Assembly: GCA_965224025.1 (NCBI GenBank)
Contig: OZ245033.1
Location: forward strand, 867,571 to 931,570
DNA length: 64,000 nucleotides
Source: Candidatus Multivorans sp.
GTDB taxonomy: Bacteria; Acidobacteriota; Thermoanaerobaculia; Multivoradales; Multivoraceae
Direction of reading: 5' to 3'
The position numbers and the translations under genes were made by a program. The first letter of the stretch is position 1. The number at the start of each line of letters is the position of its first letter. The notes under the pieces are model-generated. The model did no database searches and had not been told where the DNA came from. It saw only the letters and a program-made list of their open reading frames with translations. Of the stretch, positions 9,972 to 44,789 are shown one piece after another.

Positions 9972-10275
9972 CGTTGGCAACGGCTTCGCGACGCCCGTTC
10001 CGTCGATGATCCTGTTGGCGTCCATGACCACCGGTTTCCTGCCCACAATCGTCGCCGGGATCATCGGCGTAGCGCTGTTCTGGCAGTGGGTCTACGTGAG
10101 CTCACTGTACATGGTGAGCTTTTTCATTTCCGGAGGGCACAAGGCCCTCAGCAGACTGGACCTGTTCGTCTGGGTGTGGATGCCGAACACGGTGTGGATA
10201 CTCCTACCCCTGCTGGGACTGTACGTATCCACTCGCCTGATCCTCGACGGGAGCTACGGCGTGTTGGGCCACTGA
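9841..10275 (+). pseudogene. C-terminal three-TM fragment of a membrane protein (no plausible start)
   Basis: The tail of ORF 9712..10275 reads AWADVWAAYCVYDDAYTDR followed by three hydrophobic spans. The N-terminal part of the listed ORF is low-complexity and overlaps the peptidase remnant. Confidence 0.35.
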
Positions 10276-10292
10276 GGCCGGCGCACCCGGCA

Positions 10293-10346
10293 AGGTCGCC
10301 GCTTCGCGGCGCGTTCTCCTCCGCGGGTCAGAAGACCCGCGGCTAC
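10293..10346. repeat. REP-like double hairpin, family A (between convergent genes)
   Basis: AGGTCGCCGCTTCGCGGCGCG..CCGCGGGTC-AGAA-GACCCGCGGCTAC. A near-identical copy lies at 57636..57690. Confidence 0.75.
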
Positions 10347-11710
10347 TGACCGCCGCTCGTCTCGGCTGCCGCGGCTTGCGCCGCTTCCCTCTGCTTACGC
10401 CGGAACTCGCGCAGTTGGTCCATCTGCTCCTTCAACGCATCGGGGACGATGAAAGTGGGCATGTTCGTCTGCTGGCTCGTGTCGGTGAACGTGTAGTGGA
10501 TGAAGCCGACCATCATCTCGTCGGTCGTCGCCTCGCCCCACATCACGTTCGCCGTCGGATCCGGGTTCGCCGGGTTGTCGGCCGAGTTGTCGAACGTGGC
10601 GTCGACGCGAATCGTCGTGCCGGCCGGGATCACCTTGGGCCGCGTCGGCGTGTAGGTGAGCTGCCAGTTGAAGTCGTAGTTCGGCACGTCGAGCAGGACT
10701 TCCTTCTCGCCGTCGGGGTACTCGGCCGTGAACCTCATCGTCTTGCCCCGCAGGTGCATGTGAGGCGTGAAGTCGAAGAGCACCGCCTCGTGCTCGGTGG
10801 TGTATGACGACCACGACTGGTAGTTTCTTTCGCCCGCCGGGATGTTCAGCACCGGATCCACCAGCCACAGGGTCTCCACCACGTTCTCCGGCTTCTCGTC
10901 GTGGAAGTAGAGGCCCATCGTCGTCTGGTCCGTGCCGCCGGTGCCCGCGCCCGGAGTCTTGTGGTAGTGCATCTGGAAGAACATCGTGCTGTTCGGCGGC
11001 ATGCGCATTCCGTGCCCTTCGGCAAACTGAAGCGGAGCGACACCGGGTCCCCAGCCGCTCACGAAGGTGAGGTCCAGGGTACCCGTCCGGCTCTGCACGC
11101 CCGCGAGTGTGGCGTTGGGCGGCGCGAGGTAGGTCAACTGGTGATGCACCGCTTCGACGAATCCGGGATGGATCTCGATCGCCCGGATCCAGCGCTCTTC
11201 GTCGACCGGGTTGTCGACCTGGAGCCACTCGTAGTGATCCTCGACGTCATCGGAGACGTGGAACTCCGGGCCCGTGTAGACGGCGTCCGGCGGTCCGAGC
11301 TTCCAGTCGGAAGAGAAGCTGGGAGGCTCCGGCGCCCGGGAAAGTTCGCCGGCCGGCGCGCCCGCGGTCACCCAACGGTTCAGCGTCTCGATCTCGGCGT
11401 CGGTGAGGCTCGGGTCCTCCACGAACTCTCCGTGCTCCGGGTTTGCGAACCATGGCGGCATGGTCCGGTCGCTCGTGACCTTGCGGATCGACTTCGCCCA
11501 GGGGCGCGTCTCGTCGTAGGTCAGGAGAGACATGGGCGCGGTCTGTCCGGGTCGATGACAACTCACGCAGTTCTCGTGCAGGATCGGAGCGACATGGTCC
11601 GACCAGGTCACCTCAGCGGGGTCTGCCGCGTTGTTGGCTGGCGGCGCCGCGACGACCGCGCTCGCGAGAAACGCGAGGCCGAGAACGAGGTAGGGGAGAC
11701 GGGACTTCAT
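10343..11710 (-). CDS. Secreted heme-c (CxxCH) / copper-monooxygenase-like (PHM/DBH-type) protein
   Basis: Start moved to MKSRLPYLVLGLAFLASAVVA (signal peptide) within ORF 10343..12052. Motifs: CVSCHRPGQTAPMSL, HHQLTY, FQMHYH, FTPHMHLRG. Confidence 0.85.
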   Translation of the reverse strand: MKSRLPYLVLGLAFLASAVVAAPPANNAADPAEVTWSDHVAPILHENCVSCHRPGQTAPMSLLTYDETRPWAKSIRKVTSDRTMPPWFANPEHGEFVEDPSLTDAEIETLNRWVTAGAPAGELSRAPEPPSFSSDWKLGPPDAVYTGPEFHVSDDVEDHYEWLQVDNPVDEERWIRAIEIHPGFVEAVHHQLTYLAPPNATLAGVQSRTGTLDLTFVSGWGPGVAPLQFAEGHGMRMPPNSTMFFQMHYHKTPGAGTGGTDQTTMGLYFHDEKPENVVETLWLVDPVLNIPAGERNYQSWSSYTTEHEAVLFDFTPHMHLRGKTMRFTAEYPDGEKEVLLDVPNYDFNWQLTYTPTRPKVIPAGTTIRVDATFDNSADNPANPDPTANVMWGEATTDEMMVGFIHYTFTDTSQQTNMPTFIVPDALKEQMDQLREFRRKQREAAQAAAAETSGGQ

Positions 11711-19843: not shown

Positions 19844-20362
19844 CTACATTTCCGCTCTGAAGACCTCCACGATGCGGTCTCGCAGGTCGGCGATCTCCGG
19901 GCAAAGGCTAAAGAACTGACGCCGTCGGGCTACTGACTTCTCGGTCATCGCGCCTCGGCCGCCACCCGGACGCCGAGGGTCCCCGTACTCCTTGAGGAGG
20001 CGTTTGAAGACTGTCTCTTTGAGACGTGGATTCGACCGCACGTCACTCCACGAACCCCCAATCTCCTCGCGATAGGCCACACAGGCGTACACCTCAACTT
20101 CCGGCTCCGCCGGACAGCAGAGCAGGATCACACCCTGACGCCTGAGACGGTCCTCGAGATCGCGCATGGCACTGTCGGCAGCCCTGTCCGCGTCGGGAAA
20201 GAACAGCCAAAAATCCATGAAGCCGTAGCGGGAAGCCAGTTCGTTCCGAACGATCCTGACCGCTTCGTCATAGCCGCCGAGTCGGGGGTTCGTGAGTATC
20301 GTCACTCTGGCGTTCGGTTTGGCCGCATCCGCCAGGATCATCTCCACCAGCGGTTTCAGAAT
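19844..20362 (-). pseudogene. 3' part of the ATPase-partner gene split by the IS1595 element
   Basis: Frame of ORF 19844..20401. The first 13 codons of that ORF are IS-end sequence. From ILKPLVEMILADAAKPNARVTILTNPRLGG.. onward it continues the 5' part at 22951..23009. Confidence 0.8.
20355..20362. repeat. Target-site duplication TTCAGAAT (left copy)
   Basis: The identical octamer recurs at 22951..22958, directly outside the two inverted repeats. Confidence 0.85.
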
Positions 20363-20397
20363 GGGGATTATATACGAGAGTGCCGGGGCCGAACGGC

Positions 20398-20673
20398 TCA
20401 CCGGCGCACGTTCTTCGGTGACTTGATGTAGTTGACCTTCACTTCGGCGGCCAGCGCATCGGTCAGTTGCTCGAACGTGGCGTCGATCCGCAAGTCCTTC
20501 CGCAACTCCGCAGCGGACGGCTGGTAGTTCGGATGAACGATGTCCACCGTTGGACGGTTCGGTCCTTTGTCCTTCTCTACTTGCTTTCGAGCCACGCCAG
20601 CTTCTCCCTCAGTTCTGAGATCATGTTTGCTTTGGCGATGCTGTCTTCGCTCGTACCCTTGGCGAGATTGCAC
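20398..20673 (-). CDS. Small hypothetical ORF at the IS end (true start probably GTG 20547)
   Basis: ..VDIVHPNYQPSAAELRKDLRIDATFEQLTDALAAEVKVNYIKSPK. The listed 5' part overlaps the MTase-HNH 3' end. It occupies the same position as ORF 44226..44408 in copy 2. Confidence 0.3.
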   Translation of the reverse strand: MQSRQGYERRQHRQSKHDLRTEGEAGVARKQVEKDKGPNRPTVDIVHPNYQPSAAELRKDLRIDATFEQLTDALAAEVKVNYIKSPKNVRR

Positions 20674-21888
20674 GGTCGGCAGAGCAGTTGCAGGTTGTCG
20701 AGTTCGTCTCCGCCGCCTTCGGCTTGCGGCACGATGTGGTCAACTTCCATGACGTTGAACTGGGTGAAGGTGGAGCACATGGCACACCGCGCTTCCTGCT
20801 GGCCGTAGAGCAGGTGCTTGTGACTGGTCGGCTTCGGCGGCGCTTGCGACTCCGGGACGCTCTCTGCGGTCCAGTACTGGATGTCGTGGAGCACCGTACC
20901 CATGAACGAGACTTCGTTCGTCAGCCGCTCCTTGACGAGCTTGTACGCCATGTCGCTGATGTCCATGCCGATCCACTGGCGGCGCAAACGCTCCGCCGCT
21001 ACGCAGGCTGTGGCGCAACCGCAGAACGGATCCAGGATGATGTCGCCCTCGTTCGACGATGACCGGATGATCCGTTCCAAGAGTGCTAGCGGTTTCTGGG
21101 TCGGATAGCCGACGTTCTCGGAGGACTGCGAGTTCAGGAAGTTGATGTCGAACACATCTGTGTGCCGGTTGCCCTGGGTCGTGTCCACTGCCTTGATGAT
21201 GTCGAAGTCGTTGCGGTTGATCTTCCCTTTGGCTTCCTTCCGGGCCAGAACAGCTTCGTCGTAGATGTACAGGTAGCGCTGTCCGTTCATTCGCTTCGTG
21301 TTGTAGCCAGCCCGAATGAGTTGCTGCTTCCGTGGCGACAACTCGGAATCGTAGGTCGCGGTGTAGTGGAACTTCGTGGAGCGCGAGTAGAACAGGACCG
21401 TGTCGTGAGCGCGCAGAAACTTCTTGGCCCGCGAGTTCGCCACCTTCTTGTATGACCACACGATCTCGTTGCGGAACTGGTTCCGCCCGAAGATGGAGTC
21501 CATCAGCGTCTTGAGGTAGTGGCTGGCGGTTGGATCGCAGTGCAGGTACACGCTGGCCGTGGGCTTCATAACACGCCGTAGTTCGAGCAGCCGCACTGCC
21601 ATGTAGATCAGGTACGCCTTCATGCCCTTCGAGTGCGCGGTGCCCGCCGCGTCGATGGTCTGGTACAGCGCCGGGTGGTGTTCCGCGAGTTCGCCGTGCC
21701 CGCCGCCTTGCTGCCTATCGGCGCAGCGAAGTTCCGGTTCTTGTTGAACGGCGGATCGAGGTAGACCAGATCTACGCATCCGTCCGCCATTCCGCGCAGG
21801 ATGTTGAGGTTGTCGCCCGTGTGGATCGCCCGAACCCAATCCTGCGGTCCGTATCTTGCAGGGACAATTCCGCGCCGTCCGCCGTCAT
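20577..21888 (-). pseudogene. Amino-DNA-methyltransferase (DPPF type) fused to an HNH nuclease; two frame changes plus a short deletion
   Basis: ATG 21888 overlaps the transposase stop (ATGA). DWVRAIHTGDNLNILRGMADGCVDLVYLDPPFNKNRNFAAPIGSKAAG is in a second frame. HGELAEHHPALYQ..SVYLHCDP..GYPTQKPLALLERII..DPFCGCATACVAAE and the C-terminal CAMCS..DHIVPQAEGGGDELDNLQLLCRPCNLAKG are in the third frame (track ORF 20577..21839). Confidence 0.75.
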
Positions 21889-22883
21889 GCCGTCGCTTCC
21901 CGTGCGCCCGAAGGCAGGCCGTTGTCGGCGATTAGGTCACGGTAGCGGAGGCGCTTGCCATCCATGTCTTCGGCGAAGCGGTCCAGTTGCTCCGCCGTGT
22001 CGAACTCGCGGACGTTCTGCCGCCAGCCGAACTCGTCCACGTAGCGCTGCAACTGCTTCGGCGAGAGCTTGTGGAACGTGCCTTTGTGCGAACGCTTGAG
22101 CATGGACCACAGGGACTCGATGCCATTCGTGTGGATCTTGCCGTCCACGTACTCGCCGACCGAGTGCTTGACCGTGCCACGCTCATACTCGGTCAGACCC
22201 GCGTAGGCCCCGGTGTCGTCGGTGTAGACCGTCGCGCCGGGTTCGACATGCTCCCGGACGAATGCCTGTAGGGTCTCGCCATCGGTCGAGCGAACCACGC
22301 GGGCCGCTACCTGTTTCGTCTCGCGGTCCTTCACTCCCACCACCGCCGTCTTGCCGACCGTGCCGCGACCTTCCATCGTCTTCCGCTTCTTGGCGTGCAT
22401 GTTCTTCCGCAACCCGCCGATGTACGTCTCATCGGCTTCAACCGGGCCGGGGAACAGGACGTTCGGCCCGTTCGTCTCAAACGCCGCCCGGAGACGCTGC
22501 GCCATGAACCACGCGGTCTTCTGAGTGACACCGAGGTCGCGGTGCAGCTTCATGCTCGACATGCTCTTGAGGCTGGTCGTCAGCAGGAACGCCGCGAGCA
22601 TCCACTTCTGGAAGCCGATCTTCGAGCCTTCCATGACGGTGCCGGTCTTCGCGCTGAACCGCTGGTAGCAACCCTTCTCGCGGCAGCGGTACGGCATCGA
22701 CTTGTGCTTCGCACCCGTCTGGACATTGTTGGACCCGCAGGCCGGGCAGGTCGGCCCGACGGGCCAGCGGCGCTTGACGTACCATGCCTCCGCCGTCTTG
22801 TTGTCGGGGAATATCCGCATCATCTCCACCAGAGTGATGCCCTTCCGGTATGCCTTGCCGGGTGCCTTGTGCTCAGTCATCAT
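21885..22883 (-). CDS. IS1595-family transposase (N-terminal zinc ribbon + DDE)
   Basis: CPACGSNNV..YRCREKGCYQRFS zinc ribbon, MKLHRDLGVTQKTAWFMAQRLR and VEADETYIGG..VYTDDTGAY..HTNGIESLWSMLKR. It is strongly similar to ORF 41783..42769 in the C-terminal two-thirds. Confidence 0.9.
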   Translation of the reverse strand: MMTEHKAPGKAYRKGITLVEMMRIFPDNKTAEAWYVKRRWPVGPTCPACGSNNVQTGAKHKSMPYRCREKGCYQRFSAKTGTVMEGSKIGFQKWMLAAFLLTTSLKSMSSMKLHRDLGVTQKTAWFMAQRLRAAFETNGPNVLFPGPVEADETYIGGLRKNMHAKKRKTMEGRGTVGKTAVVGVKDRETKQVAARVVRSTDGETLQAFVREHVEPGATVYTDDTGAYAGLTEYERGTVKHSVGEYVDGKIHTNGIESLWSMLKRSHKGTFHKLSPKQLQRYVDEFGWRQNVREFDTAEQLDRFAEDMDGKRLRYRDLIADNGLPSGAREATA

Positions 22884-22890
22884 GCCCAGA

Positions 22891-22920
22891 ATCTTACAGG
22901 AGAGTGCCGGGGGAAGTCAA
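22891..22920 (-). promoter_or_regulatory. Candidate outward-in promoter in the IS end (TTGACT-18-TAAGAT)
   Basis: Minus strand reads cTTGACTtcccccggcactctcctgTAAGATtctgggcATG. The -10 lies only about 7 nt from the ATG, so the mRNA could be leaderless. Confidence 0.3.
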
Positions 22921-22950
22921 GCGCTTTCGGCACTCTCGTATATAATCCCC

Positions 22951-23009
22951 TTCAGAATGTAGCCATTGAGAGTGGGGTCTTCTGGAATCACCAGAACGCG
23001 CACACTCAC
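22951..23009 (-). pseudogene. 5' part of the ATPase-partner gene (GTG start overlapping the ATPase stop), ending in the right TSD copy
   Basis: GTG AGT GTG CGC GTT CTG GTG ATT CCA GAA GAC CCC ACT CTC AAT GGC TAC ATT CTG AA translates as VSVRVLVIPEDPTLNGYILK. GTGA overlap with the stop at 23006-23008. Confidence 0.75.
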
Positions 23010-24229
23010 AAAGCCGCCTCCATCCACCCCTCCGTGAACAGATCGGCCACACCGCCGGCAGCGACGGCCTTGCGGAAGTCGGGAATGTCCTGCAAGGCCG
23101 TGATCGTCGCGTCGCCCTTGTCCGCGTTTCGCCGGCAGACGTAGGTTGTGGCGTACTCGGTTCTCTTGAGCCACGCGAGAACGGCCGGCGAATGAGTGGT
23201 CGCCATCACTTGTGTCGACCGGCGCGCGGCGTTCGACCGGAGAAGCTCCAGGAGCAGGCGCGTACGGCTCGCGTGAATGCCGTTCTCGATCTCCTCGATC
23301 GTCATGATCCGCGGCATGTCGGGCTGAAAGAAGGCCGCCGCGATTGCAGCGAACCGAAGCGTGCCGTCACTCAACACCGGCGCCGGAAACTCTCTGTTCC
23401 CTTCCCGCAACATGAAGAGCGGCTCGCCCACGGCACCAGGTAAGGTGGCAACGCTGTCTACTTCCGCCGGCCGCAGCTCGCGCAGCCACTCCAGATAGCC
23501 GGCTTCCGTTTCCGGATCCGTGCAGATCGTCCTGACCAGGGCGGCGAAGTTCTCTCCGCGCTCGCCCATGCGGTCTACCTGCTGCGCCTGTGAGTAGCCT
23601 CTCAAGACGGTCGGCGCGGGGTCGATTCGCTGCGTGTTGACCAATTCGTCCGCCACCCGCGCAGCGTCCGCCCGATGCTGCGGTTCCACCCGCTTCGCCC
23701 CTTCGAACTGCCCCAGAACTGGCTGGCTCCGCTCGAACTCCAAGTGGCGGGGACGGCCAACCTTGCCGTGGTAATACTCCACTCGATGAACGGGACTCCC
23801 GATGCCGCCGCGGTCGGCATACCGGGAGTCAAAGACGGAACGGCCTGCGTACACCAGCCTCTCCTGTGCCACATGCCCCCTCCGGGGAGACACGGTCACC
23901 GAGTACCGCCATCGCCTTGTCGCCTTCCCAACACTCAGCCTGCCGGCCGCGTCAATCGTGAAAGTCTCCGGCTGTTCGCTCCCTTCGAAACACGCCTTCG
24001 CGCTTCCGCCTCGGATTCCCTCCCAGACTTCACTGGTCGCGCTTCTTGGCTTGCCGTCGAGAATCTCGCTCACCGTGAAGCGGCTACCCACTCCCTGCAG
24101 CACGCGAAGTGCATCGAGGAAATTCGACTTTCCGCTGGCATTGGCACCAACGAACAGGTTCATTCCGCCCAACGCCACGGTCACGTCGCGAAAGCTCTTG
24201 AAGTCCCTGATGGTGATTCGGTCGATCAT
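23006..24229 (-). CDS. SMC/RecF-like ABC-type AAA ATPase (AAA_15/AAA_21 class)
   Basis: IRDFKSFRDV..LFVGANASGKSNFLDAL (Walker A), LSDGTLRF (signature), IMTIEEIENGIH (Walker B) and MATTHSP. Confidence 0.9.
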   Translation of the reverse strand: MIDRITIRDFKSFRDVTVALGGMNLFVGANASGKSNFLDALRVLQGVGSRFTVSEILDGKPRSATSEVWEGIRGGSAKACFEGSEQPETFTIDAAGRLSVGKATRRWRYSVTVSPRRGHVAQERLVYAGRSVFDSRYADRGGIGSPVHRVEYYHGKVGRPRHLEFERSQPVLGQFEGAKRVEPQHRADAARVADELVNTQRIDPAPTVLRGYSQAQQVDRMGERGENFAALVRTICTDPETEAGYLEWLRELRPAEVDSVATLPGAVGEPLFMLREGNREFPAPVLSDGTLRFAAIAAAFFQPDMPRIMTIEEIENGIHASRTRLLLELLRSNAARRSTQVMATTHSPAVLAWLKRTEYATTYVCRRNADKGDATITALQDIPDFRKAVAAGGVADLFTEGWMEAAL

Positions 24230-41782: not shown

Positions 41783-42769
41783 ATGAAGCACAAGGCACCC
41801 GGCAAGGCTTACCGCAAGGGACTGACGTTCGTGCAACTGGCGCGGATGTTCCCCGATGAAGCAGCCGCGCGAGACTGGTTCGAGACGTACCTTTGGCCCG
41901 ATGGAGTGAAGTGGTGCCCGAACTGCGGCGGCGACAACACGCACGCATGCAAGCACAAGCAGATGCCGTACCGCTGCCGCGACTGCAAGCGGTACTTCAG
42001 CGTCAAGACCGGCACGCTCATGGCTGGTTCGCCGTTGCCTCTGTTGACGTGGCTCTACGCGATCTACCTCGAACTCACATCGCTCAAGGGCGTATCGAGC
42101 ATGAAACTGCACCGTGACCTAGGCGTCACTCAGAAGACCGCTTGGCACATGCTCCAGCGCATCCGCGAAGCGTTCGCCGCCGAAGGGCCGGAAGTCCGGT
42201 TCGACGGTCCCGCCGAAGTGGACGAGACGTACTTCGGCGGTCTGCGGAAGAACATGCCGAAGTGGAAGCGTGCGGAGCTTGAAGGTCGCGGCACGGTCGG
42301 CAAGACCGCCGTGGTGGGCATCAAGGACCGCGAGACCAAGAAGGTCGCGGCGAAGGTGGTCCGCTCCACCGACGGCGAGACCCTACAGGCGTTCGTGCGC
42401 GAGCACGTCGAACCCGGCGCGATGGTGTACAGCGACGATACCGGGGCGTACAGCGGTCTGACCGAGTACGAGCGTGGCACGGTGAAGCACTCGGTCGGCG
42501 AGTACGTGGACGGCAAGGTCCACACGAACTCGATCGAGAGCTTCTGGTCGATGCTCAAGCGGGCGCACAAGGGTGTGTTCCACAAGATCAGTCCGAAGCA
42601 CCTGCAACGCTACGTCGATGAGTTCGCGGGTCGGCAGAACATCCGCGAGTACGACACGCTGGCGCAGATGGTCGCCGTCACGGAGGGACTCGCGGGCAAG
42701 CGGCTCCGCTATCGTGACCTGATCGCCGACAACGGCCTGCCGTCGGGCGCGCGCGAGGCCGCCGCATGA
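41783..42769 (+). CDS. IS1595-family transposase
   Basis: CPNCGGDN..YRCRDCKRYFS, MKLHRDLGVTQKTAWHMLQRIR and VDETYFGG..VYSDDTGAY..HTNSIESFWSMLKR. Confidence 0.9.
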   Translation: MKHKAPGKAYRKGLTFVQLARMFPDEAAARDWFETYLWPDGVKWCPNCGGDNTHACKHKQMPYRCRDCKRYFSVKTGTLMAGSPLPLLTWLYAIYLELTSLKGVSSMKLHRDLGVTQKTAWHMLQRIREAFAAEGPEVRFDGPAEVDETYFGGLRKNMPKWKRAELEGRGTVGKTAVVGIKDRETKKVAAKVVRSTDGETLQAFVREHVEPGAMVYSDDTGAYSGLTEYERGTVKHSVGEYVDGKVHTNSIESFWSMLKRAHKGVFHKISPKHLQRYVDEFAGRQNIREYDTLAQMVAVTEGLAGKRLRYRDLIADNGLPSGAREAAA

Positions 42770-44212
42770 CCATCCTCGGTTCGTTCAGTCTGGTTCCAAA
42801 CAGCCTCTACTACGGCGACTGCCTCGAAGTCATGGGCGGTTGGCCAGCCGAGTCGGTGGATCTGATCTACCTCGATCCGCCGTTCAACTCGAAGGCGGAC
42901 TACAACCAGTTGTTCGGCACCGAGAACGGCGTGCCGGCCCAAGTTCGGGCGTTCACCGACACATGGACATGGAACGACTCGGCGGCCGAGCGGTACGACC
43001 GTTTCAGCCGTGCAGTCGCGCATCCCGCGCACAAGGCGGTAGTCGGCCTGCACATGGCGCTAGGTCCATCGGGGATGCTCGCGTACCTCACCTACATGGC
43101 CGAGCGGCTCGCGGAGTGCAAGCGCCTGCTCAAGCCGACCGGCTCCATCTACCTGCACTGTGACCACACGGCGGGCGCGTACCTGAAGATGCTCATGGAC
43201 GCGATCTTCGGAGCGAACAATCGCCGAAGCGAACTCCACTGGTACTACTACAACAAGATGCACGACAGCCGGAAGAAGCTGTTTGCTGCCGCCACGGACA
43301 CAATCTTCTTCTATGTCAAGGATGTGGACTCCGGTTTTTCGTTTGAACAACTTCAAGAACGCCGCGAAAAGCCCGTCAAGCAGCTTGTACGAGCCAAAGT
43401 CAACGGCCGCATGGTCAACAAGCGAGACGAAGACGGTCGGCTGATGTACCAGACCAAGACACATAGAACCATTGACAATGTGTGGCGGATACCCTGTTTG
43501 CAACCAGCATCGAGGGAGAGATTAGGCTGTCCAACACAGAAGCCCCGTGCGCTGTTGGATCGCATCATCAAGGCGTCTTCTAGGGAAGGTGACTTGGTGC
43601 TTGACCCGTTCTGCGGTTGTGGCACGACGATAGACGCGGCGAATCGACTGCAACGGCAGTGGGTCGGCATCGACCTTTCACCGTTCGCCACTCGCCTTGT
43701 GCGTGACCGCAGGCTCAAGGATGCGAGTATCCAGATCTTCGGTATCCCGACAGATGTTGAAGGCGCACGGCTCCTGCTACGCAACAACCCGTTCGACTTC
43801 GAGGCGTGGATCGTTACGTCGGTGGACGGGCTGGCGGCGAACGAGGTCCAGGTAGGCGACGGCGGCATCGACGGGCGCGGCAGGATGTTCACCGTGCCGG
43901 ACGATGAAACAGGCTTGGTGCTCGCTCAGGTGAAGGGGGGGGTACACCGCATCGGCGCTGCGGGACTTCGAGGGCACGATGGGCCGCGAGAACGCCACGG
44001 CGGGCATCTTCGTCACCTTGAAGCGCGTCACAACGTCCAGTGCCCGCGCGGCTGCCAAGGCGATGGGCGAGTACCGCGTAGGCGCGACGCGCTACCCTCG
44101 GCTCCAGTTCTGGTCCGCAGAGGAGTATCTGAGGGGCGTCCGTCCTCACCTACCCGCGATGGCCGACCCGTACACCGGCAAAGCAGTTCAGACCGACATG
44201 TTCACCGGATAG
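42766..44212 (+). pseudogene. Amino-DNA-methyltransferase (DPPF) fused to a PD-(D/E)xK (Mrr-like) nuclease domain, out of frame at a G8 tract
   Basis: VDLIYLDPPFNSK, SIYLHCDH and GCPTQKPRALLDRII..DPFCGCGTTIDAAN. Next GDGGIDGRG..LAQVKGG, then a frame change to YTASALRDFEGTMGRENATAGIFVTLKR (ORF 43979..44212). With G7 the gene would be 482 codons, uninterrupted. Confidence 0.8.
43935..43942 (+). repeat. G8 homopolymer at the frame break of the MTase-nuclease gene
   Basis: gtgaaGGGGGGGGtac. The downstream frame has a TGA at 43931-43933, so the shift must occur inside the tract. Confidence 0.9.
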
Positions 44213-44225
44213 CAGGGAGGAAGCG

Positions 44226-44408
44226 TTGCCCAAGAAGCCGAAGCGCCACACGGAACACAAGAAGGTGTACAAAGCCGAGTACGGCGGCGCTACGCCCGCG
44301 CAGGTCACGCTTGCGCTTCTACGCTACCGTCCAAACGCACCCGAAGCCGTCACGAAGCGTTTGCCACCGCAGGTTCAAGCCGACCCCGCTATCAAGTCTA
44401 GTGTATAA
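44226..44408 (+). CDS. Small hypothetical ORF at the IS end (TTG start)
   Basis: MPKKPKRHTEHKKVYKAEYGGATPAQVTLALLRY. Its stop lies inside IR-R, and its position is equivalent to 20398..20673 in copy 1. Confidence 0.3.
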   Translation: MPKKPKRHTEHKKVYKAEYGGATPAQVTLALLRYRPNAPEAVTKRLPPQVQADPAIKSSV

Positions 44409-44414
44409 TCCCCC

Positions 44415-44789
44415 TTCCAAGGCACTCCGTTCGCAGACATCCTCTCTCAGATCGACGATCAGTCCAACCCACTGGCAATTGACCTCGGGCTGTTCTTCCT
44501 TGAGCAGAACGAGACCACCGTGCGGAAGTTCAACGAGCAACTTGAGAAGATCGTGCAGGGCGCTGCGACAGACGGTACTCCCTACCGGTTCGCCTTCGGT
44601 GTCGGCAATCGTGGGCCTGCGCTGACAGCGCACTGCAATCGTCTCCCGAGAGAGGAGGCCGCAGCTCTGTTGAGAGCGGACTGTCGAAGGGCCCTTGACC
44701 GGGTCGACTGCAGTTTCGGCATCTCGCTCGACCCGGACGGCACCATCAAGACAGTCGAGAAGCTAGTCCGCGCCGAACAAGACCGTTGA
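44415..44789 (+). pseudogene. Start-less ORF opening at the IS boundary (probable 3' remnant of an interrupted gene)
   Basis: The frame of ORF 44520..44789 stays open back to the IS end: FQGTPFADILSQIDDQSNPLAIDLGLFFLEQNETTVRKFNEQLEK.. No start codon with a sensible context is present. Confidence 0.4.

Follow-up and report, generated by a model that had tools for sequence, protein, structure and literature searches.

Pairs made of an ABC ATPase and a nuclease are a recurrent design of bacterial immunity, found in Septu, PARIS, Gabija, OLD, AbiL and MADS. In PARIS and Septu the two functions are split, an ABC ATPase oligomer holding a separate nuclease in check; the PARIS nuclease is a Toprim protein, AriB, a DUF4435 protein of 35 kDa (~ 300 amino acids, aa), and that of Septu, PtuB, is an HNH nuclease. 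The OLD nucleases and Gabija GajA also combine an ABC ATPase with Toprim chemistry but carry both domains fused in one polypeptide. A small Toprim-superfamily protein next to an AAA_21 ATPase is seen with DUF4276 proteins, Mad3-Mad4, RloA/RloB and AbiLi/AbiLii, and these pairs are frequently linked to methylases or restriction systems. DUF4276 and RloB are members of the Toprim superfamily, with a Glu after β1 and a DxD after β3, and Mad4 is a DUF4276 homologue (PMC12065111). HEC-01 has been defined as an ABC ATPase plus a TOPRIM protein (bioRxiv 10.1101/2024.01.29.577857) and PDC-M07 is a two-gene candidate of the PADLOC library, ATPase first, with the cassette FAM_00005>>FAM_01367. Here we compare with these systems a locus at positions 19,844 to 24,229 of a stretch of 64,000 nucleotides (nt) from Candidatus Multivorans sp. 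(contig OZ245033.1), hereafter called the window.

The locus holds an intact gene for an ABC-type ATPase and, directly downstream on the same strand, a gene for a small partner protein that is split by an insertion sequence (IS). The two genes probably form an operon of the type in which an ABC ATPase is paired with a small Toprim-like nuclease, a candidate defence module that has been inactivated here. Such an architecture is already known from RloA/RloB, AbiL, Mad3/Mad4, HEC-01 and PDC-M07. The novelty is modest and lies in a large environmental family whose small partner is recognised by neither Pfam, NCBIfam nor PADLOC, which has extra ExE and GGGR motifs and which recurs in a Type III-like cassette.

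The two genes and the inserted element

A previous examination of the letters alone (the sequence-only reading) had proposed a 407-aa ATPase, coupled by a GTGA overlap to a partner of 189 aa that an IS had interrupted. The features of the locus, from the ATPase gene to the end of the partner gene, are the following:

23006-24229, minus strand: gene of the ABC-type ATPase, 407 aa, intact, with Walker A GANASGKSN, signature LSDGT(LRF), Walker B IEEIE(NGIH) and H-loop (A)TTHSP
23006-23009, minus strand: GTGA start/stop overlap of the ATPase stop codon with the partner start codon
22951-23009, minus strand: 5' piece of the partner gene with codons 1-19, 2 further nt and the invariant E10 and D11; one copy of the target-site duplication makes up its final 8 nt
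22951-22958: right copy of the target-site duplication, TTCAGAAT on the plus strand
20363-22950, minus strand: IS1595-family insertion sequence with passenger genes, 2,588 bp
22928-22950: perfect 23-nt inverted repeat that ends the IS on the transposase side
21885-22883, minus strand: IS1595-family DDE transposase, 332 aa (DDE_Tnp_IS1595, NF033547)
20577-21839, minus strand: passenger gene, an N6/N4 DNA methyltransferase fused to an HNH nuclease, with its DPPF motif in another frame (21620-21790)
20398-20673, minus strand: small open reading frame (ORF) of 91 aa within the IS
20363-20385: perfect 23-nt inverted repeat at the other terminus of the IS
20355-20362: left copy of the target-site duplication
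19844-20362, minus strand: 3' fragment of the partner gene, codon 18 to stop, with D74xD76, E105xE107 and G152-R153 and no internal stop or frameshift

All the ATPase motifs that had been named are found, and the coupling of the two genes was borne out as well. The ATPase gene ends with the codons TTG-TGA, and its TGA (23008-23006) overlaps a GTG (23009-23007) from which the partner frame reads M-S-V-R-V-L-V-I-P-E-D-P-T-L-N-G-Y-I-L-K. The start at this GTG is confirmed because M1 and S2 are nearly invariant among the homologues; the N-terminus given by the sequence-only reading omitted these first two residues, the true start being M-S-V-R-V. An 85-aa ORF that had been listed on the minus strand at 22917-23174, which starts within the 3' end of the ATPase gene, crosses the first 19 codons of the partner and continues into the IS, is an artefact of an upstream in-frame GTG and no gene.

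The partner gene is split at codons 18-20, 59 nt into its frame. The inserted element belongs to the IS1595 family: the transposase (PF12762 DDE_Tnp_IS1595, 3.4e-42; NF033547, 193.6 bits against a cutoff of 75), the terminal inverted repeats (0 matches of 23 nt expected by chance) and an 8-bp direct duplication on either side of the element are all present. Eight base pairs is the usual length of the target duplication in this family (ISfinder). When the IS and one copy of the duplication are removed, and the 5' piece is joined to 19844-20362, the partner becomes an uninterrupted ORF of 570 nt, 189 codons and a stop, which aligns end to end with homologues of 185-192 aa (82% identity over 99% of the query for the protein P0002); the 189-aa reconstruction of the earlier reading therefore stands as a clean ORF with full-length homologues. 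Given that the IS separates E10/D11 from D74xD76 and E105xE107, the module in the window is predicted to be inactive, as had been claimed, and would represent a pseudogenised defence candidate with a still intact ATPase gene. Both inverted repeats are perfect, the target duplication is intact and neither half of the gene is damaged, which indicates a recent insertion; the junction between IS and partner is present in two independent read sets.

In the public annotation the 3' part of the partner appears as a 185-aa hybrid ORF (P0001; 19844-20401, minus strand), with a GTG start inside the inverted repeat of the IS that overlaps the stop of the small 91-aa ORF, again by GTGA. This hybrid lacks the first acidic pair and hence the effector should be dead. 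The 91-aa ORF itself has no family match in Pfam or NCBIfam. Compared with an intact Rhizobium homologue, the passenger methyltransferase-HNH gene misses ~ 20-25 residues including an "AFEDTW" stretch; this, together with the off-frame DPPF motif, suggests that it is probably frameshifted. A sequencing error as the source of this frameshift is unlikely since an independent short-read contig is identical (L009).

The flanking genes are ygfZ-like (GCV_T) and moeZ-like (ThiS-ThiF-Rhodanese), with a moeZ-to-ATPase spacer of only 249 bp. The GC content of the pair is 62.8% as compared to 67-70% in the flanks, and at third codon positions it is 0.78 for the ATPase gene against 0.90 for moeZ, in agreement with the initial description of a pair standing alone between ygfZ and moeZ and less GC-rich than both.

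Affinities of the ATPase and of its partner

Profile searches with both proteins, and a structure search with the partner, had been proposed as checks. The ATPase gives strong matches to Pfam AAA_21 (7e-32, 112 bits against a gathering threshold of 27) and AAA_15 (1.5e-18, 68 against 32). In the PADLOC library it matches four PDC-M07A models at full length, from 1e-60 to 1e-69 (PDC-M07A at 1.1e-68, 230 bits), followed by HEC-01A (8e-41, 138 bits), AbiLi (1e-24) and mad3 (4e-22). The "AriA" models of PADLOC match only the generic core of the protein, and their lengths (304 and 373) are those of Pfam AAA_21 and AAA_15, for which reason these models appear to be generic; the Old and GajA models match the P-loop region only. 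The AlphaFold2 model of the ATPase has a mean predicted local distance difference test score (pLDDT) of 86.6, and its best Foldseek matches in the PDB are PtuA (from Septu and from retron Ec78/Eco7 complexes), the SMC head and Rad50, with E values of ~ 1e-13 and TM-scores of 0.45-0.54, those to PtuA reaching only 0.45-0.49. From its sequence matches and predicted structure, the protein can be classed as an ABC ATPase of the AAA_21/AAA_15 group with a Rad50/SMC-like head fold.

The Rad50 matches, and a weak N-terminal match to RecF (TIGR00611), bring up the idea of a housekeeping pair for DNA repair or maintenance, analogous to RecF (an ABC ATPase) and RecR (a small Toprim protein), which have similar sizes and domain types. 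The RecF score is 36 bits against a cutoff of 172 and covers residues 2-49 only, that is, the P-loop region. Moreover, a spread that is patchy, a GC content below that of the flanks, a divergence faster than that of the neighbouring genes and the embedding of the pair in methylase/helicase cassettes (both described below) are at odds with such a role, and so is an IS knockout that is tolerated and is seen in both read sets. A RecF/RecR-like housekeeping function is thus highly improbable, and was rejected because of the low scores, the patchy spread and the base composition of the pair.

A search with the 189-aa partner returned 383 proteins, nearly all of 185-192 aa, which cover 96-99% of the query; the top match is the IS/partner hybrid ORF of the genome itself and the closest intact one is 82% identical. 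An exhaustive profile search extended the family to 548 clusters at 50% identity (E <= 1e-3). Among members of 25-80% identity E10 and D74 are invariant, down to 25%, and D11, P21, G47, D76, A102, E105, E107, W122, R126, K132, E133, G152, R153, C171 and E173 are conserved at 90% or more. The E..DxD pattern seen in the sequence-only reading is hence conserved across the family as E10/D11 and D74xD76.

In order to place the family, 87 diverse relatives of the partner were scanned against profile libraries. The commonest match is to PF14103 (DUF4276), found below threshold in 29 of the 87, with a best E value of 5.7e-6 and collinear where checked individually. PADLOC HEC-01B is matched by 25 relatives (best 6.7e-7, collinear), RloB by three, Toprim_4 by one, AbiLii and mad4 of PADLOC by three each and PDC-M31B by a few, while the MAD4 model NF047734 is matched by a single relative at E 0.069. 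The sequence-only reading had offered three analogies, namely split OLD-family systems, PARIS and AAA_21-DUF4276 pairs; the last is the best fit, and the one with PARIS failed, as neither the partner nor its relatives have a DUF4435 or AriB match in Pfam or PADLOC. No match to a non-defence family was found for the partner either.

The AlphaFold2 model of the partner is confident (pLDDT 91.3, predicted TM-score 0.88). The order of its elements is β1(4-9)-α1-β2(36-39)-α2-β3(68-72)-α3-β4(97-99)-α4, followed by a helical C-terminal part, and the acidic residues are placed with E10/D11 after β1, D74xD76 after β3 and E105xE107 after β4. Toprim domains are defined by a three-layer α/β fold with the sheet order β2-β1-β3-β4, a conserved Glu in the β1-α1 loop and a DxD after β3. 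The partner agrees with this layout in the predicted succession of its strands and helices and in where E10 and D74xD76 lie. Furthermore, when the model was compared by Foldseek with predicted viral structures (BFVD), an RloB-like protein came first, with an E value of 9.5e-4, a probability of 1.00 and a TM-score of 0.53 over 173 columns. The Toprim-like fold suggested earlier is compatible with the residue layout and with this match, but no solved Toprim domain was among the PDB fold matches (see below).

Together, these scans point to the partner as a remote relative of DUF4276, HEC-01B and RloB, a remote homology that is well supported. In our reading it represents a branch of the DUF4276/RloB-like Toprim-related proteins that has diverged and for which there is at present no model. 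Formal membership of Pfam DUF4276 (PF14103) does not apply to it. The "uncharacterised effector family" of the sequence-only reading is correct insofar as the partner has no significant family model; the family is probably an offshoot of a known superfamily that has diverged, and no new fold, and "effector" presupposes a defence role that is itself deduced. The family differs from DUF4276, Mad4, RloB and AbiLii in having an invariant ExE after β4, as well as a GGGR motif in a C-terminal helical part that is itself conserved.

Among described systems, the pair resembles both HEC-01 and PDC-M07. HEC-01 is similarly a two-gene cassette in which an AAA_21/AAA_15-type ATPase precedes a TOPRIM-like protein of ~ 200 aa, either embedded or solo, but the window partner itself matches no HEC-01B model and the ATPase scores much higher on PDC-M07A (230 against 138 bits). 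With PDC-M07 the likeness lies in the ATPase, full length on PDC-M07A as are the ATPases of two plasmid-borne relatives (1e-61 to 1e-68), and the difference in the second gene, which here apparently is of another family or of one that has no model in the library. Complete identity with PDC-M07 was rejected, A being present with no match to B. MADS was rejected as well: the ATPase scores 101 bits on Mad3 (NF047739) against a cutoff of 420, and neither a methylase nor any other mad gene is present at the window locus. As for PARIS and Septu, the split design is shared, but the partner matches neither PtuB nor AriB; identity with PARIS was dismissed given the lack of DUF4435 or AriB matches at any level and a length of 189 aa.

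The pair in other genomes

A locus scan with one genome per species yielded 79 loci, all from metagenome-assembled genomes. The earlier reading had named a lack of synteny between the homologues as grounds for its refutation, but in 79 of 79 loci an ATPase homologue lies directly upstream of the partner on the same strand. The two are separate ORFs in every locus, which excludes the OLD/Gabija class, and an NTGA overlap joins them in 73 (48 GTGA, 24 ATGA and 1 TTGA). Moreover, the identities of ATPase and partner to the window copies covary (r = 0.77). The loci come from at least seven phyla, with Acidobacteriota (Thermoanaerobaculia "Candidatus Multivorans", Vicinamibacterales and Terriglobia), Verrucomicrobiota, Gammaproteobacteria, Spirochaetia, Planctomycetota, Cyanobacteria and Binatia represented, a patchy spread that we count as defence-like. 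On the plasmids Brasilonema pBOCT1 (GenBank) and a Rathayibacter plasmid (RefSeq) the ATPase gene also comes first and adjoins the partner gene with overlapping start and stop codons, the partner being annotated "hypothetical protein".

In the clade of the window the pair occupies the same site between moeZ and ygfZ in nine GTDB species and several metagenome contigs, with spacers of variable length on either side. Within this clade the pair is 70-79% identical to the window copy as compared to 82-95% for the housekeeping flanks. In sister genomes an AbiJ-like gene (AbiJ_NTD4 plus Abi_C) lies in the moeZ-ATPase spacer, and an AbiEi/AbiEii pair is found a few kb downstream of the partner, past ygfZ (coordinates of the Abi genes: L002 4362-5276; L003 336-1250; L014 7624-8532; L005 11122-12727). 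The moeZ/ygfZ site hence behaves as a small defence hotspot.

Both the tight translational coupling and the patchy, horizontally transferred distribution would also be expected of a selfish toxin-regulator module of the addiction or abortive-infection type, serving its own maintenance over phage protection, with the partner as toxin and the ATPase as inhibitor. Indeed, Pfam calls AAA_21 a "putative AbiEii toxin, Type IV TA system" (TA, toxin-antitoxin), and it is always the partner, never the ATPase, that is damaged in the window and in two further loci, as expected if the partner is costly. In one of these (L089, ~ 10001-10554) the partner is apparently frameshifted exactly at FFPDAD and in the other (L086, ~ 10001-10460) it is truncated after about residue 133, each with a full-length ATPase upstream. 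Damage in three of ~ 80 genomes is too little to interpret, however, and the frameshift in L089 may be an assembly error. Furthermore, a whole clade has inherited the pair vertically at a single chromosomal site, and plasmids and phages, on which addiction modules thrive, almost entirely lack it. We therefore consider a selfish module a poor candidate for the function of the pair.

Over all 79 loci, the pair is solo among housekeeping genes in 55, occasionally with a ParE/RHH pair or a SLFN/STAND gene nearby. In 11 loci it forms part of a tight four-gene cassette made of a Type III-like Mod methylase, the ATPase, the partner and a ResIII helicase, and 13 more loci hold partial copies, some of them ended by the contig edge. 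Pairs outside the cassette sometimes have Abi genes beside them. The cassette methylase (1,060-1,100 aa) matches PADLOC MTase_III at 2e-169 and is EcoP15I-Mod-like over residues 158-501. The helicase (1,014-1,040 aa) is of the ResIII type, matches REase_III at only 1e-10 and has no relative among PDB sequences. In locus L091 neighbouring genes overlap by 4 bp at both the Mod/ATPase and the ATPase/partner junction, and 3 bp lie between partner and helicase. Loci listed for the cassette are L091 (5557-13615), L092 (5105-13720), L030, L037, L040, L054, L059, L067, L068, L075, L080 and L084.

This tight packing, and the number of full and partial cassettes, could mean that the pair consists of integral subunits of a four-gene methylation-linked system (Mod, ATPase, Toprim-like protein and ResIII helicase), in which it could be a sensor or backup nuclease firing when restriction is blocked, as PrrC does with EcoprrI or PARIS with Ocr; the solo copies would then be remnants with a reduced function or none. 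Remnants of the Mod C-terminus and of the helicase N-terminus adjoin the pair in three loci (L048, L065 and L069), which suggests a decay of the cassette into a solo pair, and MADS likewise joins a methylase with the Mad3 ATPase and the DUF4276 protein Mad4. On the other hand, 55 of the 79 loci are solo, and in the window clade both genes are kept intact at 70-79% identity with neither Mod nor Res nearby; a solo clade that is so long-lived and intact argues for selection on the pair alone. In a neighbour-joining tree of the concatenated proteins, moreover, the window clade is wholly solo and the embedded forms make up two clades apart from each other, which is the pattern expected if the module can enter and leave other systems. 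The same behaviour has been described for embedded defence systems by Payne et al. (bioRxiv 10.1101/2024.01.29.577857). Obligate membership in a four-gene system is, in our view, unlikely.

A different interpretation of the cassette can be put forward tentatively, although we rather doubt it. The four genes may form an undescribed methylation-associated defence system with the pair as its sensor-effector core (a "mini-MADS"), the pair in the window being this core working autonomously, and the extra ExE and GGGR motifs may mark a Toprim-derived nuclease whose substrate or regulation is unlike that of OLD, AriB and RloB.

Proposed action of the pair and further observations

For the reading that we prefer, a two-gene module of ABC ATPase and small Toprim-like nuclease, a mode of action can be sketched from analogy with Septu PtuA-PtuB and PARIS AriA-AriB. 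An oligomer of the ATPase would bind the small, metal-dependent nuclease and keep it silent. A cue from a phage or another mobile element would be sensed by the ATPase, upon which the nuclease would be released or activated and would cut nucleic acid, either tRNA or DNA, so that the infection is stopped or the infected cell is killed. With the IS sitting at codons 18-20, the window copy of the nuclease would have E10/D11 cut off from the rest of the active site, and the module would be inactive. We infer the defence function of the pair from such analogies, and the nuclease activity, its substrate, the trigger and the binding of ATPase and partner are likewise putative.

Several results weigh against this reading. 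Neither the window partner nor its close relatives have a significant Pfam, NCBIfam or PADLOC model, and the DUF4276 scores of the relatives, 14-27 bits overall and 24-27 in one comparison, are below the gathering threshold of 30.2. Foldseek of the partner against the PDB gave nothing below E 1e-3, its top matches being generic Rossmann- or flavodoxin-like folds, and it did not recover the solved Toprim domains of OLD, GajA, AriB, RNase M5 or DnaG; a profile search of PDB sequences with the partner family was empty too. No PDC-M07B match was obtained among ~ 160 partner relatives, the Rathayibacter and Brasilonema plasmids included, nor for the window partner, although the ATPase is closest to PDC-M07A; the pair is therefore not captured as a complete PADLOC system. 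In addition, most of the loci are solo pairs among housekeeping genes, the two plasmids named above are the only plasmid records with a partner relative and phage records hold none. Finally, the nearest assayed analogue, HEC-01, gave no protection against any phage tried (bioRxiv 10.1101/2024.01.29.577857).

The partner family is widespread in hard-to-culture environmental phyla, as reflected by its 548 clusters. Given that the partner is unrecognised by Pfam and NCBIfam and the pair by PADLOC, defence-finding pipelines would miss the pair or call it incomplete, a gap in annotation that would be closed by a profile derived from our partner alignment. How the pair cooperates with restriction-modification could in turn be learnt from the divergent Type III-like methylase/helicase cassette in which it is often embedded. 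For the present genome the conclusion is a modest one, namely that a defence candidate has been pseudogenised by an IS with a methylase-HNH passenger gene of its own.

Elsewhere in the window, on the plus strand, a beta-class DNA methyltransferase of 619 aa was observed at 42766-44625, CcrM/RsrI-like (3.6e-20 to PDB 6pbd). It is preceded with a 4-bp overlap by an ORF of 328 aa (41783-42769) which has no relative of solved structure, and the two genes (41783-44625) may constitute a restriction-modification pair.

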